Origin: a virus
Lineage: Duplodnaviria; Heunggongvirae; Uroviricota; Caudoviricetes
DNA length: 35,845 bases
IMG/VR virus record: IMGVR_UViG_2671180473_000015
Strand: one strand, 5' to 3'
The notes under the pieces were generated by a model, which did no database searches, was not told the origin of the DNA, and saw only the letters and a list, made by a program, of their open reading frames with translations. The translations under genes and the position numbers were made by a program. How positions within the stretch are numbered: position 1 is the stretch's first letter; each line of letters starts with the position of its first letter. Positions 2,384-7,915 of this stretch are shown here, one piece after another.

Positions 2384-2504
2384 GTGTGTATATATACGCA
2401 ATGCAATTATTTTGCAAGTGCTTCATTTACTATCAATAGCTACGTCACGTTATTGTTTAATGGTTCTTTATAGGGGCGGCAATAGTTAAAATTATCGCTT
2501 CCGT

Positions 2505-2526
2505 AAATGCCCCCGCAGGGGCATTT
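2505..2526 (-). terminator. stem-loop downstream of the YfdQ-like gene (weak terminator or RNA stability element)
   Basis: Perfect 9-bp stem AAATGCCCC / GGGGCATTT with a 4-nt loop. No clean U-tract on the minus strand, so termination efficiency is uncertain. Confidence 0.3.
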
Positions 2527-2538
2527 GCAGTAATGAAA

Positions 2539-3363
2539 TCAGGCGGTGAAAGTACCAATAAAGGTTTCTACTTTGCTGTCTTTGAATTTCTCAACAAGCA
2601 GATCACGAAATTCGTTAGCCATTTCTTCCTGTACCGCTTCCAGCTGAATAATGCGCAGAACCAGTACAGGACGATCGCCAGTGATAATGCTGAGGCGTAA
2701 TTTAAACGGACGTTCTTTCAGACCTTCAAACGGAACGCATTTAAATTCAAATGCCACTGGCATAATGTCTTTGGTCTTCGCTTCGACAGACTCCATCAGG
2801 GAGCGTTTGCCGCTGAAGTCATTATCTTCAAAATCAGCGGTCTGGTTCGCTTCAATTGTGATTTTACGGATCGCCGCAGCCGCTTTGGTTGCCTGAATGG
2901 CGTCACCATTAGCATCAAAGCCCACAAGGTAGTCGGCCCAGTCTTCAATCCATTCTGCCAGTGACTTCTGGGAGTTACGCTCGCCATTAACAGACAACAG
3001 AGCAGAGAACGGAGCTGTCTTTTTCAGTTTGAGAGTGGCGGTGTTATCTGCGTGACCTGGTTCATCAATAGTACCCAGGTTAAGAACACTGACGGCACGC
3101 ATATTATCAGCATCGATAAAGCAGCGGGTGCCTTCATCTGCAAGATCTTTAGAATAACGAGTAAAGTCATCGATGCTGGCAGTGGAAAGCGCACCACGGA
3201 AACGGAAACGATTTAAATTTAATTTTTCCAGATCATGAATGCGGAAATTCTCAGGCAATGCCACAGCATCGGCACCAATCTTACTGATAATTTCATTAAC
3301 ACCCTGAGCAGAAATAAGGGCATGGATTTGATTAATTGCGGTTGCGTCTAAGTTCTGAGACAT
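2539..3363 (-). CDS. DUF2303 / YfdQ-like prophage protein
   Basis: 274-aa ORF. Length and sequence character match what I recall of the YfdQ (DUF2303) family of E. coli CPS-53-type prophages. Follows the YfdP-like gene in the same leftward operon. Confidence 0.55.
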
Positions 3364-3428
3364 AATAAGTCCTCACTATATAAAGATATTCAGTGATGAG
3401 ATAAATAATCGGTTAATTAAGAACGATA

Positions 3429-3791
3429 TTAATGACCTGCTGCGCGGAGTTTTCCGTCAGGTTCACCGGCAAGAGTCAGTAATTGTCCCTGGTCTTCCTG
3501 CAGAATAGTCAGGCGACCACCGCGATTGACATACATCGGCGTTTCGGTGGTGTCTTCTTCGGAAATTTTCCCGCGGTTAGTCGGGCGAACATATGAGAGT
3601 TTGTGTTTGATTTTCACACGGTTCTCATCAAATGGTTCGATTTCCAGGTTGAGTGAGACCTTACCTTTGGTTTTCGTGTTCATCACACCGGAAGCGACTT
3701 CACTGAGAACTGCGCCGATTTTGGTTTCAAATACGCCGCCGTCCAGCTCCCCAATAAATGCCTGCACATCAGTACTGCGTTCGCTAGCCAT
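3429..3791 (-). CDS. conserved prophage early-left protein (YfdP-like), about 120 aa
   Basis: The track ORF 3429..3977 starts with TTG far upstream. An internal ATG at 3791 (MASERSTDVQAFIGELDGG...) has a good SD (AGGAGC, 6-7 nt upstream) and gives a 120-aa product. Confidence 0.55.
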   Translation of the reverse strand: MASERSTDVQAFIGELDGGVFETKIGAVLSEVASGVMNTKTKGKVSLNLEIEPFDENRVKIKHKLSYVRPTNRGKISEEDTTETPMYVNRGGRLTILQEDQGQLLTLAGEPDGKLRAAGH

Positions 3792-3840
3792 TTTGCTGCT
3801 CCTAATCATATCGACCCTGCAAGGTCGGTTGGTTTCTCCA

Positions 3841-3927
3841 CAAAACAGAGAAGAACACCTGCGGTGGCAGCCGCCCGGATGGATTTGGTTATGAGCCCGT
3901 CGTCCGGTGATGCTCTTCTCTGTTTTG
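3841..3927 (-). repeat. 87-bp inverted repeat with perfect 14-bp arms (long RNA stem in the early-left leader)
   Basis: Arms CAAAACAGAGAAGA (3841-3854) and TCTTCTCTGTTTTG (3914-3927) are exact reverse complements. The 59-nt spacer contains further self-complementary GC-rich segments. Lies just upstream of the YfdP-like start on the transcribed (minus) strand. Confidence 0.6.
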
Positions 3928-3928
3928 T

Positions 3929-3978
3929 AAAAAGAGCGGTACCAGCCGGAAGCAAGTGTACAAACTGGTACCGCCAAA
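3929..3978 (-). ncRNA. DicF-like small RNA candidate ending in an intrinsic terminator
   Basis: Minus-strand sequence TTTGGCGGTACCAGTTT...CTGGTACCGCTCTTTTT: an 11-bp stem (GGCGGTACCAG / CTGGTACCGCT, one G-U) followed by a U-run. Its 5' half closely resembles the core of DicF (TTTGGCGGTATCAGTTT) as I recall it. Located in the early-left operon downstream of the repressor gene, as DicF is in Qin. The 5' end is not determinable. Confidence 0.4.
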
Positions 3979-4406
3979 GCAGTGGCTGTTGTGGTGACCG
4001 GTGCTGATCTCCGGCTTGCGGTTATTTCAGACTCTCACGGGCGTTTAATTGCCCCGCCGAACAGCTCTTTTCCGCATTAGCTGCAATGTCTTTCGCGCAT
4101 CAGCCTGCGCATTCACCACAACGCTGAGAGCACTTAGCCAGTTACGGCACCACACTTTGTCGCGGTTCCATAAATGTCCTCATCGTTGCACCCTGGTCTC
4201 TTCCCAGGCGTCAAACCGAATCGCCACGCTGGTTAGGCGTCTTATCAGCATCATCATTGACTTGCACATTCCGGCTACCTGGTTTGTTTGCCCGAGCAAG
4301 GAGTGGATTGTCCCCTTTAACGTCCCCAGACCGCTAACGACGCATGTGCCATACGCCGTGTTACAACCAAATTTTGTTTAATCTTGCCTGTGCTGTGTTT
4401 CTTTTA

Positions 4407-4477: not shown

Positions 4478-5152
4478 TTAGGCCTTTATTATGTATCTTC
4501 TTGGTTTTCCTGAGAAAATCACTGTACCAATTATAGAGCAATTACCGTTAATCTTAATGTAAGGCTCAGGCCAGTTTGGGTTTAATGCTTTGAGATAACG
4601 CTGTGTTCCATCTTCTATCAACCGCTTGAAGGTGGTTTCGCCTGTATCGTGCATCAATGCAATAACGTCGTCACCGTGGCAGGCAGGGACTTCAGGATCA
4701 ACAAAAATCATGTCTCCCGGGCGGTACTCATCAATCATTGAATCACCAATCACCCGCAAGATATAAGTCATTTCGCCACAGGGTACAGGGCAGGGATAAG
4801 TTTCTGCTGTGCTCAAATCAACCTCAGAATAGCCAACTTCTTTCCATGCTCCGGCCTGTACCCATGATATGACAGGGACTAACGTTATTTGTTTGTTAGT
4901 GATTGAAACGTCAGGTTTTTTTGTGATGTTCGTTGTCTGGTGTTCTTGATCAAGCCATCCGACAGGCAGGTCGAAACATTTTTCGATGTGCCGTGCCATG
5001 CTGTCACCGATATTTTTAGTTGCACCATCTCCCATAAACCTGCTGGTCTGGGTTGGCTCGCGATCAATCATGGTGGCAAAGGAAGAATTCCCGCCAACAC
5101 CATCTCTCAGTTTTCTGGCGTTAGACCGCCGGATGTCATGGACTGTTTTCAT
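4478..5152 (-). CDS. CI-like prophage repressor (HTH domain plus S24 LexA-like autopeptidase domain)
   Basis: 224-aa ORF. C-terminal domain carries the GDSM Ser motif (LRVIGDSM) and a downstream Lys (TFKRL) typical of S24 self-cleaving repressors. Divergent from the cro-like gene, with operator palindromes between them. Confidence 0.85.
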   Translation of the reverse strand: MKTVHDIRRSNARKLRDGVGGNSSFATMIDREPTQTSRFMGDGATKNIGDSMARHIEKCFDLPVGWLDQEHQTTNITKKPDVSITNKQITLVPVISWVQAGAWKEVGYSEVDLSTAETYPCPVPCGEMTYILRVIGDSMIDEYRPGDMIFVDPEVPACHGDDVIALMHDTGETTFKRLIEDGTQRYLKALNPNWPEPYIKINGNCSIIGTVIFSGKPRRYIIKA

Positions 5153-5242: not shown

Positions 5243-5443
5243 ATGAAAGCGTATTGGGACTCTTTAACCAAAGAACAGCAGGGTGAGTTGGCCGGAAAAG
5301 TTGGCTCAACACCAGGCTACTTACGGCTGGTTTTCAATGGTTATAAAAAAGCCAGTTTTGTGCTGGCTAAAAAACTTGAGCAATGCACGTCAGGTGCAAT
5401 TACGAAATCTGACTTAAGACCGGATATCTATCCGAAAGATTAA
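5243..5443 (+). CDS. Cro-like small HTH repressor
   Basis: 66-aa ORF with SD GGAGGT about 9 nt upstream of the ATG. Divergent from the repressor gene. The track ORF 4940..5443 is an upstream extension across the operators and is rejected. Confidence 0.7.
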   Translation: MKAYWDSLTKEQQGELAGKVGSTPGYLRLVFNGYKKASFVLAKKLEQCTSGAITKSDLRPDIYPKD

Positions 5444-5474: not shown

Positions 5475-6038
5475 ATGAGGCTAACCGTGGGTAAGCATCA
5501 CTGGAAAGTAGAAAAACAGCCTGAGTGGTACGTGAAAGCTGTCAGAAAAACTATCGCGGCGTTGCCGGGGGGTTACGCTGAAGCTGCTGAGTGGCTGGAT
5601 GTAACAGAGAACGCTTTATTCAACCGCCTTCGTGCAGATGGCGATCAGATTTTCCCGCTGGGATGGGCAATGATTTTACAGCGCGCGGCTGGCACTCACT
5701 ACATTGCGGATGCTGTCGCACAGTCTGCTGGTGGGGTGTTTGTATCGCTTCCTGAAATTGAGGAAGTAGAGAACGCCGATATAAACCAGCGCCTGCTGGA
5801 AGTCATCGAACAGATCGGGAGTTACTCAAAGCAGATTCGTTCGGCAATCGAAGATGGGGTAGTGGAGCCACACGAGCAGACAGCAATTAATGATGAGTTG
5901 TATCTGTCAATTTCGAAGCTCCAGGAGCATGCAGCACTGGTCTACAAAATCTTTTGCGCTCCAGAAAAGAGTGACGCCCGCGAGTGTGCAGCTCCGGGCG
6001 TCGTGGCGTTTTGTGTCTGTGGAGAAACTAACGCATGA
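5475..6038 (+). CDS. early regulatory protein at the cII position (CII/YdaT-like, family uncertain)
   Basis: 187-aa ORF directly downstream of cro. Stop overlaps the next start (ATGA). Family assignment is from position and weak recollection only. Confidence 0.4.
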   Translation: MRLTVGKHHWKVEKQPEWYVKAVRKTIAALPGGYAEAAEWLDVTENALFNRLRADGDQIFPLGWAMILQRAAGTHYIADAVAQSAGGVFVSLPEIEEVENADINQRLLEVIEQIGSYSKQIRSAIEDGVVEPHEQTAINDELYLSISKLQEHAALVYKIFCAPEKSDARECAAPGVVAFCVCGETNA

Positions 6039-6871
6039 ACAGTTTAACGGCAAATAACCGTTTGTCGCAACAGCTGGTGGTCAGCGTCGCTGAACACCTG
6101 TTGTTACGGCATGAATGCAGATTACCAAATCACCTGGCTGTAAGTAACCACAGAGAACTTTACCTGACTGTGGGGGGCGAGTTGTGCAGGAACTTAACCG
6201 CTGGTTTCGTGACGGAAGAGGACTTTATGTTCATGTTATTCGTTGGGAGCCAGAAACACAGCGCGTTATCTATCTTCGCAAAGACTACCCGCATGAGTGC
6301 TTTAGTCCTTTGTGGAAATTCAGGCGTGATTTTGTTGAGTGTGAAGGACCACCAGCACATTGATTCTGCCATTCCGGGACGTTACACTGTTCAGGCACCT
6401 TATAAAGCGGGTGCCGGGATTGGCGTCCTGGAATTGATCAAGGCGATATATGACGCGCCAGCGTCTTTTTTATCGTCCGCATTTGCTCACATCAAAGTTA
6501 TGGTGGGCTGGGCGGGGGCATCGAAAGATGCGCCGGTTTCCTTGATCACCGGTTACGCCAACCCCGTTCAGTTCACCACCAGCGAAATTGGCGTTTCCGG
6601 TGGTGGAAGTATTTCACCGATCAAGGAGGCTGCCATCATGGCTACTGTCCCAGCCCTCACTCGTCTGAATGATGAAGACTTACATAAACTCAGTTATGTA
6701 ACAACTGCACTACGTGCTCTGCGCAAGGTAACTCTTTCGGATCCGCAGGCACATCAGGTTCTGGTAGAAACCCTTCTTAACTTGCAAGCTGAACGTATTC
6801 GTCTGGCGGATAAGGCTAATTTTCATATTCACCGTCTCCTGAATATCAGCGGAGGGCATCGTCATGCTTAA
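6035..6871 (+). CDS. hypothetical protein (gene structure uncertain)
   Basis: 278-codon open frame with SD GGAG upstream of the ATG at 6035, translationally coupled at both ends. No family recognised. An alternative 59-aa ORF in another frame (6184..6363) starts just after a G6 homopolymer, so a frameshift or overlapping genes cannot be excluded. Confidence 0.35.
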   Translation: MNSLTANNRLSQQLVVSVAEHLLLRHECRLPNHLAVSNHRELYLTVGGELCRNLTAGFVTEEDFMFMLFVGSQKHSALSIFAKTTRMSALVLCGNSGVILLSVKDHQHIDSAIPGRYTVQAPYKAGAGIGVLELIKAIYDAPASFLSSAFAHIKVMVGWAGASKDAPVSLITGYANPVQFTTSEIGVSGGGSISPIKEAAIMATVPALTRLNDEDLHKLSYVTTALRALRKVTLSDPQAHQVLVETLLNLQAERIRLADKANFHIHRLLNISGGHRHA

Positions 6872-7100
6872 TCCGTTGATCCTCAATATTTGCCGTTTGC
6901 TTCAGCGTAAAAAAATATCAATTCCTACAGTTGGGCAGTGGTACACCACGCCTGCAGGGCATGTTCTACGTGTTAGCCTGGTTGACCGTGAATGCCAGAA
7001 GGTGATTTGTGAACCGCTGGGCCGTAATTACCGCGTCAGTATGCCGCTTATAGCCTTTCGCTCCGGAAAAAACATGAAGCATCTCGGAGGTGCAGCATGA
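6864..7100 (+). CDS. small hypothetical protein (78 aa)
   Basis: ATG with upstream GGAGGG SD. Start overlaps the upstream stop and its stop overlaps the O-like start (ATGA), i.e. translational coupling within the early-right operon. Confidence 0.4.
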   Translation: MLNPLILNICRLLQRKKISIPTVGQWYTTPAGHVLRVSLVDRECQKVICEPLGRNYRVSMPLIAFRSGKNMKHLGGAA

Positions 7101-7915
7101 GTATGGAGCTGATGGTTAAAGCGATGAAAATTCGAGTGGGTAATCCATTGCGAAAACTGGTTCTGATCAAGCTGGCTGATAATGCCAGCGATCAGGGTGA
7201 GTGCTGGCCCAGCTACCAGCATATTGCTGACCAGTGCGAAATTAGCAAACGTTCTGTGATGAATCATATTGCGGCCCTTTGTGAGTCCGGGCTGGTAAAA
7301 AAAGTCACCCGGAAAGGTGAAAAAGGTAACTCAAGTAATATCTATCTCCTTCATCTGGATGGTGCAGGAGATTCACTAGGGGGTAGTGCAAATAATTCAC
7401 TATCTGGTGCAGCAAATTCACCAGGTAGTGCAGGAGTTGCACCAGGGGGTAGTGCAGGAGATTCACCCAGAACCAGTCACTCTTTTGAACCAGTCAAAGA
7501 ACCAGTCAATGAACCAATAGCTGTTGGTGCATCAGTTGATGAGTCCGTGCGAGTTCGTTCAAACCGACCGGAATACTCTCCGGAGTTTGAGCAGGCATGG
7601 CTGGCATATCCCAAACGTGCTGGTGGCAATTCAAAATCTGCAGCCTTCAAAGCCTGGAAAGCCCGTTTGAATGAGGGAGTAAACCCCGAAACCATGCTGG
7701 AAGGTGTGAAACGCTACGCGGGATGGGTATCTGCGATGGGTAACAGCGGCACACAATTTGTGAAACAGGCTGTCACGTTCTTTGGTCCGGATCGTCATTT
7801 CGAAGAATTCTGGGAAGTTCCTGCGGTATCTGCAGCCAGACGCGAGGACCCGTACTTCAAAGCCAGTTACGACAACGTGGACTACAGCCAGATCCCGGCA
7901 GGATTCAGGGGGTGA
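7097..7915 (+). CDS. replication initiator, lambda O-like (N-terminal winged-HTH replisome organiser)
   Basis: 272-aa ORF. N-terminus (KLVLIKLADNASDQGECWPSYQHIADQCEISKRSVMNHIAAL) is the classic phage replication-initiator HTH. A Gly/Ser-rich linker is encoded by an internal iteron array, as in lambda O. Confidence 0.7.
   Translation: MSMELMVKAMKIRVGNPLRKLVLIKLADNASDQGECWPSYQHIADQCEISKRSVMNHIAALCESGLVKKVTRKGEKGNSSNIYLLHLDGAGDSLGGSANNSLSGAANSPGSAGVAPGGSAGDSPRTSHSFEPVKEPVNEPIAVGASVDESVRVRSNRPEYSPEFEQAWLAYPKRAGGNSKSAAFKAWKARLNEGVNPETMLEGVKRYAGWVSAMGNSGTQFVKQAVTFFGPDRHFEEFWEVPAVSAARREDPYFKASYDNVDYSQIPAGFRG
7361..7508 (+). repeat. iteron array (candidate replication origin) inside the O-like gene
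   Basis: Five direct repeats of about 19 bp (consensus GGTAGTGCAGGAGATTCAC) at roughly 7361, 7382, 7406, 7424 and 7448, followed by three copies of AACCAGTCA at 7471, 7488 and 7500. Confidence 0.55.

Follow-up and report, generated by a model that had tools for sequence, protein, structure and literature searches.

Is the 278-codon open reading frame (ORF) that begins at ATG 6035 of IMG/VR record IMGVR_UViG_2671180473_000015 a single gene, a gene broken at a run of guanines, or a frame that simply stays open across elements of other kinds? The record, a 35,845-nucleotide (nt) stretch of Caudoviricetes DNA, is here called the window, and all positions given without a locus number are its own. 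A sequence-only reading had described the frame as lacking any recognizable domain and had pointed to a GTG at 6184, shortly after GGGGGG at 6172-6177, that opens a 59-amino-acid (aa) ORF in another frame; an insertion or deletion in the G6 run was proposed to join the two. The coordinates and sequences so described are correct, as is the coupling remarked at both ends of the long frame, whose ATG overlaps the TGA of a ymfL-type gene (ATGA) and whose TAA (6869-6871) overlaps the ATG at 6864 of the next ORF. The DNA of 6035-6871 shares 99.4% identity with Shigella phage SfV (NC_003444) and 100% with a prophage of Escherichia coli C7; the window is an SfV-like lambdoid prophage, and the region lies in its early-right operon.

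We conclude, at a probability of roughly 0.8, that the 278-codon frame reads, accidentally or permissively, through five distinct elements: a YmfM-family ORF, an overlapping DUF4222 gene, an IsrK-type small RNA (sRNA), a C4/CI-type antisense RNA and a 77-aa gene. The outcome is mainly a correction of annotation, in which a mis-annotated ORF resolves into known elements.

Evidence for a composite frame

Amino acid constraint in the long frame is confined to its downstream end. Among 42 close full-length variants, the ratio of nonsynonymous to synonymous differences per site (pN/pS) in that frame was 0.74, 1.17, 0.94, 1.09 and 0.24 for segments S1 to S5, respectively (S3, 6364-6499; S4, 6500-6637; S5, 6638-6871); the last value was obtained from 22 variants. 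Homology to relatives breaks at positions ~6182, 6346-6349 and 6650-6662, which are the borders proposed for the individual features and thus count in favor of a composite. The sequence-only reading had itself suggested how the long frame might be vindicated, through intact homologs in related phages and no conservation of the alternative frame; we find intact 278-codon frames only in the close SfV-like group, and the alternative frame conserved far more widely.

The embedded 59-aa ORF is a genuine gene, with matches to Pfam DUF4222 (PF13973; 51.1 bits, cut-off 27) and, over its full length, to phrog_1343 (E 1e-36). Across codons 2-51 of 18 unique sequences its own frame shows pS 0.67, pN 0.15 and pN/pS 0.22 (bootstrap confidence interval 0.14-0.32), against 1.46 for the same sequences in the frame of the long ORF and 1.63 in the third frame. 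It is open in 18 loci from Citrobacter, Kluyvera, Enterobacter, Atlantibacter, Kosakonia, Phytobacter, Buttiauxella and Escherichia/Shigella, where it mostly starts with ATG and has its own GGAGG-type Shine-Dalgarno (SD) element upstream. At the position of the G6 run, relatives carry GGAGG(G), AGGAGG or GGAAGG ahead of an ATG, GTG or TTG, and one close variant has GGGAGG; because GGAGGG, AGGAGG and GGGAGG occur there, we read the G6 run as the SD element of DUF4222. In one E. coli prophage (L004) the gene occurs by itself downstream of a Rha gene, and similarity of the DNA to the window is confined to 6182-6346. A profile search of 1.8 billion representatives returned 81 clusters (50% identity), mostly proteins of ~57-80 aa, and the AlphaFold2 (AF2) model is a confident SH3/Tudor-like beta-barrel with a predicted local distance difference test (pLDDT) score of 85.5. 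The Prokaryotic Genome Annotation Pipeline (PGAP) of NCBI also annotates the gene separately in E. coli genomes. The earlier impression that this ORF reads like a real small protein was sound, and the true gene structure does depart from the 278-codon frame, with further genes beginning downstream. No functional work on DUF4222 was found in the literature. As a separate observation, locus L004 also holds a listed ORF of 620 codons (2405-4267; 635 codons free of stops) that runs from before DUF4222, antisense across a toxin-antitoxin pair, into an Ash-Rha region; though strikingly long, it is probably a shadow ORF.

Downstream of DUF4222 lies the main content of the region, which had previously been overlooked, namely two regulatory RNAs of the IsrK and C4 types, both scoring above the gathering thresholds of their Rfam models (Table 1). 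A terminator scan places the intrinsic terminator of IsrK at a stem of 6452-6465 followed by a T-run to 6471. The C4 structure shows compensatory changes in 17 of its 26 pairs across 32 diverse copies. Its hairpin loop b' (6539-6548) has an exact 9-nt complement to b1 (6435-6443, within IsrK) and b2 (6619-6627), and its junction a' (6555-6561) an exact 7-nt complement to a1 (6420-6426) and a2 (6588-6594); these target sites are defined by exact complementarity, the predictions of RNA duplexes having been uninterpretable and left unused. The identities of the elements, the coding frames and these complementarities are what the analysis shows directly. A read-through RNA spanning 6395-6645 folds with z = -5.06 relative to shuffled sequences, and its SD region is paired when the dot-bracket structure is read by eye. 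Variation within IsrK and C4 is flat over codon positions, both in the 42 close variants and in 62 broader enterobacterial copies. The stretch holding the putative IsrK promoter is mostly conserved in those 62 copies (12 have no aligned sequence there), with variation mainly between -10 and +1; in the SfV-like group, one of its 31 columns is variable. Further C4 copies were collected by a frame-blind DNA pattern with a looser anchor, the window C4 having a one-base insertion. In the enterobacterial lambdoid type the long frame is open; in other types of C4 locus each of the three frames is closed by stops within ~100 nt to either side, and these loci keep the C4 and an SD-ATG ~90-105 nt downstream. 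Two IMG/VR contigs (L107 and L132) carry two C4 copies each, 650-1300 nt apart on the same strand, an arrangement that suggests tandem C4-controlled cassettes.

The 278-aa product is not devoid of a domain, as had been stated: Pfam Phage_ASH (PF10554) matches aa 117-210, or positions 6383-6664, with 67.8 bits (cut-off 26; E 1.3e-18). The matched stretch coincides, however, with IsrK and C4 plus their flanks, and it is the part of the frame (S3 and S4) in which amino acid constraint is absent. In phage P4 (L231 8168-8584 and 7888-8175, minus strand), the ORF recognized by Phage_ASH is the obsolete conceptual "cI gene product (AA 1-137)", which lies over a Rfam C4 match that we take to be the CI RNA gene. 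The CI RNA is the known immunity factor of P4 (summarized in PMC4825925). The P4 derepression protein epsilon matches PF25738, not PF10554; the profile given for epsilon in a survey of P4-like satellites is PF10554 (PMC8628076). Given the lack of protein constraint, the overlap with IsrK and C4, and the position of the P4 "cI" ORF over a C4 match, "Ash" is here a translated regulatory-RNA region.

Within C4, the ATG at 6500 opens a leader ORF at the same position and in the same frame relative to C4 as orf45 of Gifsy-1, and phrog_4908 likewise starts at this codon. Most of the 32 diverse C4 copies, like the Rfam consensus, have this AUG at the 5' end of the stem (uuAUGGug, 6500-6502), and it may be retained also for RNA processing. 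As the leader runs in frame into ATG 6638, the cargo downstream may be produced in forms of 123 aa and 77 aa. The N-terminus of the 77-aa product, MATVPALT, is common to Rha/antirepressor genes in the same slot of relatives. Its AF2 model (pLDDT 83.7) is a helical hairpin for which a fold search gave no significant structural match, and a homology search returned near-identical homologs only, with no match to Icd, Ant or Rha. None of the 278-aa, 59-aa, 77-aa and YmfM-like products has an NCBIfam match.

At the other end, the first ~110 codons of the long frame resemble YmfM, with BLASTP E values of 4e-17 against a Kluyvera YmfM-like ORF and 5e-9 against YmfM of the E. coli K-12 element e14 (over ~90-100 aa); the YmfM profile phrog_1170 recognizes aa 47-98 only. 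Because the tail of DUF4222 is different, the usual YmfM stop is missing, and the frame therefore extends into the RNA module. An out-of-frame overlap of ymfM with DUF4222 is present in all relatives (window 6035-6363; L003 2271-2629, which is e14; and L005-L023).

Table 1. Position and basis of the features in and around the 278-codon frame.
Feature	Position	Strand	Basis or remark
278-codon open frame (SfV orf37)	6035-6871	+	Read as a composite frame, not a single gene
YmfM-homologous part of long frame (aa 1-110)	6035-6364	+	Usual YmfM stop absent; frame runs on
G6 run, read as SD element of DUF4222	6172-6177	+	Ends 6 nt before GTG 6184
DUF4222 gene, 59 aa	6184-6363	+	GTG start, TGA 6361-6363; real small protein, -1 frame relative to long ORF
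Putative IsrK promoter	6360-6388	+	TTGATT (6360-6365), 17-nt spacer, TACACT (6383-6388); overlaps DUF4222 stop
IsrK-like sRNA (P4 seqA equivalent)	6395-6471	+	Rfam RF01394, 64.2 bits (gathering 50)
C4/CI-type antisense RNA	6496-6583	+	Rfam RF01695, 82.3 bits (gathering 45)
orf45-like leader ORF	6500-6637	+	ATG in C4 5' strand; 46 codons; fused in frame to next gene, not ATGA-ended
Downstream C4 targets	6588-6629	+	a2 (6588-6594), b2 (6619-6627); b2 overlaps SD AAGGAGG (6623-6629) of ATG 6638
77-aa cargo gene at icd/ant position	6638-6871	+	ATG start; pN/pS 0.24; SD 8 nt upstream; predicted helical hairpin
LexA-type repressor gene	4478-5152	-	
cro-like gene	5243-5443		
ymfL-type gene (ymfL/CII-CP76; phage CII/CP76 family)	5487-6038	+	NCBIfam phage_reg_YmfL, 169 bits (cut-off 90); Pfam Phage_CP76; PGAP annotation of identical E. 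coli C7 prophage
78-aa ORF	6864-7100		Downstream of 77-aa gene
Helix-turn-helix replication gene	7097-7915		PerC-like gene after it

These elements can be assembled into a plausible switch, for which we infer the RNA processing and the direction of regulation. A YmfM-family ORF would be read from ATG 6035, coupled to the ymfL stop, and DUF4222 from its own start in the overlapping -1 frame, with the G6 run serving as its SD element. The IsrK-type sRNA, probably made from its own promoter over the DUF4222 stop, would carry the a1 and b1 sites and end at a leaky terminator, and the C4/CI-type RNA would probably be processed from read-through transcripts. By analogy with P1 immI, P4 and Gifsy-1 isrK, C4 would pair with a2 and b2 in cis or in trans, leaving untranslated the 77-aa gene, whose SD element b2 covers. 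Such a block would probably also lower the expression of genes farther downstream via polarity; the decoy a1/b1 sites of IsrK could relieve it; and the leader ORF from ATG 6500, equivalent to orf45, would hand ribosomes to the start of the cargo gene.

Alternative readings

Several observations weigh against this resolution into five elements. In the lineage of the window itself, the first 50 codons of the long frame carry no clear coding signal, with few differences and pN/pS of 0.74-0.81. The long frame has remained open in 40 of the 42 close variants despite as many as 90 substitutions. Among 34 frame-blind copies with 91 substitution events, the 243 nt preceding ATG 6638 contain no stop in the long frame where ~3.0 were expected (P ~0.05), as compared with 6 and 4 observed in the other two frames, for which 4.0 and 4.1 were expected. 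Marginally, therefore, translation may enter from upstream and cross the RNA region; we make no claim of this stop depletion through IsrK and C4, which the need to translate the leader ORF could explain in part. The proposed IsrK promoter, read from the sequence, matches the consensus at only 8 of 12 positions and falls below the threshold of a promoter scan. Finally, the 77-aa product has no distant homologs or assigned function, so that its designation as cargo derives from its position.

The alternative that survives best concerns the upstream end. It holds that DUF4222 is the only real gene in 6035-6363, that the YmfM-like frame, including ymfM of e14, is an untranslated shadow ORF, and that 6039-6183 is a non-coding leader. 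PGAP indeed leaves 6039-6183 empty; a comparison of this interval between the window and L006, its closest distinct relative (Citrobacter), shows no third-position bias (pN/pS 0.81); the YmfM frame is unconstrained over the DUF4222 overlap, with the value of 1.46 given above; and phrog_1170 is blind to the first 46 residues of the window. When more diverged copies of the first 50 codons were sought, every copy recovered was 100% identical; in 6039-6190 the RNA fold is unremarkable (z = -0.62), and scans gave neither promoter nor terminator matches. Against the shadow ORF stands evidence drawn from relatives. In 12 of them the N-terminal 56 codons have a pN/pS of 0.31, as opposed to 1.11 and 1.27 in the other frames, and nearly all loci preserve the ATGA in which the start overlaps the upstream stop, even where the C-terminus of the upstream gene differs. 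Across DUF4222, where the YmfM frame lacks amino acid constraint, it nevertheless contains no stop in any of 19 unique sequences. When synonymous codons are resampled, 2.0-2.7 stops are expected, and the probability that none occurs is 0.02-0.07 per sequence. At sites where synonymous choice in DUF4222 could create a stop in the YmfM frame, only the safe codons CTT, CTC, GTT and GTC are used; at a comparable site without such risk, GTG is found in 8 of 9 sequences. These patterns suggest that ymfM and DUF4222 form a real overlapping gene pair in the relatives. For the window lineage, we lean somewhat toward translation of the YmfM-like frame, and consider the shadow ORF with a non-coding leader doubtful, though a serious competitor.

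The matter bears on E. coli K-12, where ymfM of e14 has been reported as SfiC, an SOS division inhibitor, the cloned gene causing filamentation (Ansari et al., bioRxiv 10.1101/2020.11.19.390815); that study contains no frame-specific mutants. Judged from the sequence of the locus, the published ymfM clone would carry the SD element and TTG start of DUF4222 along with 53 of the 59 codons. We found no ribosome profiling of ymfM in the literature. A bolder extension would make ymfM/DUF4222 a true dual-coding locus in which the SfiC activity of e14 belongs wholly or partly to the DUF4222 protein, and would further have the SfV-type frame kept open through IsrK and C4, letting ribosomes of the early-right operon override the IsrK terminator and the C4 block during lytic growth; as a whole this is distinctly unlikely. 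It is also observed that E. coli UTI89 has a YmfM-like/DUF4222 block of the window type (99.5% identity over the first 384 nt, window 6035-6418) followed by a Rha gene. A filamentation screen enriched for a ymfN-ymfK region of UTI89, possibly the same locus, in which one gene bears the label ymfM (PMC6206680).

Very improbable, in our judgment, is the proposal implicit in the annotations of SfV orf37 and of phage Ayreon ("immunity region", "transcriptional regulator", Ash family) that the 278-aa ORF is one real protein. The openness of the frame in close variants, the overlaps with genes at both ends, the matches of Phage_ASH and PHROG 3960 to the 278-aa product and the marginal avoidance of stops upstream of 6638 would all be expected of such a protein. 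It would have to be reconciled, however, with a pN/pS near 1 over 6184-6637, with two Rfam RNAs and a terminator inside the frame, with the correspondence of Phage_ASH to the CI RNA region of P4, with relatives that share only sub-blocks of the frame, and with distant C4 loci that exist without the ORF.

As for the G6 run, nothing points to its being an error in the window. Among 990 E. coli records containing the surrounding 71 nt, 843 are exact matches with G6, none is an exact match with G5, and G7 is found in at least six. The fused product envisaged by the sequence-only reading does exist in rare G7 alleles: in the two examined, which have different backgrounds, the frame of the ymfL-coupled ATG continues into DUF4222 and gives a 109-aa fusion; at least six complete E. 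coli genomes carry such a fusing G7, and one IMG/VR contig encodes the same fusion. It is not a conserved product, because G7 is rare, because L006 and three close variants have a TGA in the DUF4222 frame, after the run and ahead of the start, and because more distant relatives have no homopolymer. No -1 slippery heptamer is conserved ahead of the DUF4222 start in the aligned relatives; the slippery run itself is not conserved among them, and they have GGAGGG and an ATG of their own. Hence a true product joining the N-terminal 47-50 codons to DUF4222, with G6 either a misread G7 or one state of a run prone to phase variation or frameshifting, is scarcely credible, even though the G7 alleles encode it and G GGG GGC in the long frame is, by eye, formally an X XXY YYZ heptamer, given the allele counts, the intervening TGA, the relatives with GGAGGG and the presence of DUF4222 alone in L004. 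Rare alleles of the G-run region were seen in L229 (901-972), L230 (901-972), L069 and L062, and one further contig has a 1-nt deletion within the GTG start of DUF4222.

Existing annotation and genomic setting

The SfV and Ayreon annotations give a single coding sequence of 837 nt, "orf37" or "immunity region", whereas PGAP splits the region into the DUF4222 gene (6184-6363) and an "ash family protein" starting from GTG 6326 or ATG 6293; the DUF4222 gene and the split annotation are thus already public. What appears new, as far as we have searched the literature, is the evidence for "Ash" as translated RNA, together with the dual-coding signal in ymfM/DUF4222 and its bearing on SfiC. The findings correct public annotation, in that SfV orf37 and the many calls of an "ash family protein" represent, within the stretch matched, translations of a regulatory-RNA region; they place an RNA immunity switch of the P1/P4/Gifsy type before the replication genes of an SfV-like lambdoid phage; and they raise for E. 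coli K-12 the question of which frame of the ymfM locus causes SOS filamentation.

The 78-aa ORF that follows the 77-aa gene matches phrog_1153 (E 5e-42) and shows weak reciprocal similarity to DUF4222: it matches phrog_1343 with E 0.019, the DUF4222 ORF matches phrog_1153 with E 0.008, and BLASTP aligns the two ORFs with E 0.014 at 24% identity. On these alignments, it may be a distant paralog of DUF4222.

Comparison with known systems

The ymfL-ymfM segment of e14 resembles the upstream part of the region in its ymfL-coupled ATG, its homologous ORF and the out-of-frame DUF4222 inside it. It differs in having no IsrK/C4 module and in that the ymfM frame ends 10 nt before the ATG of the replication gene (determined from the e14-like L005, in which that gene is intact); moreover, the first ~46 residues of the window are too diverged for the e14-type YmfM profile, a weak BLASTP alignment remaining.

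The immI region of phages P1 and P7 comprises the c4 antisense RNA, icd and ant. The order a1 b1 - c4 - a2 b2, with b2 lying over the ribosome-binding site (RBS) of the first downstream gene, is shared with the window. Unlike immI, the window has no Icd-like or Ant protein after C4, has an intrinsic terminator between a1/b1 and C4, and belongs to a lambdoid phage. In P4, whose RNA causes premature termination ahead of replication genes, the immunity region (seqA, CI RNA, seqC) is matched by the same two Rfam models in the same order, and the old "cI" ORF is the Phage_ASH match; the spacing is 108 nt in P4 as compared with 25 nt in the window.

The isrK-orf45-anrP region of Gifsy-1 contains a C4-like RNA that we equate with STnc1160 of PMC4825925. 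It shares with the window an IsrK with a terminator, an interval of ~25 nt, the C4-like RNA, a leader ORF starting from an AUG in the C4 5' strand, and a downstream gene whose RBS region is complementary to the RNAs (Hershko-Shalev et al. 2016, PMC4825925). Gifsy-1 orf45 was shown to be translated and to be required for translation of the antirepressor gene anrP, with which it ends in an ATGA overlap (PMC4825925); the leader of the window is instead stopless and in frame with the downstream ATG. The downstream gene of the window encodes a predicted helical protein of 77 aa rather than an antirepressor, and its module lies between a CII-like gene and the replication genes, whereas that of Gifsy-1 follows antQ.

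By tests at the level of sequence, then, the region belongs to the type of RNA switch represented by P1 c4, P4 CI and Gifsy-1 IsrK, except in the gene that follows: P1 has icd/ant-type genes there and P4 replication genes shut off by termination, while in the window the 77-aa gene comes next, in the slot that relatives fill with Rha/Ant, and the replication genes come ~460 nt later. The switch of the window is distinct in its 77-aa cargo, in the in-frame leader that precedes it, and in being located before the replication genes.

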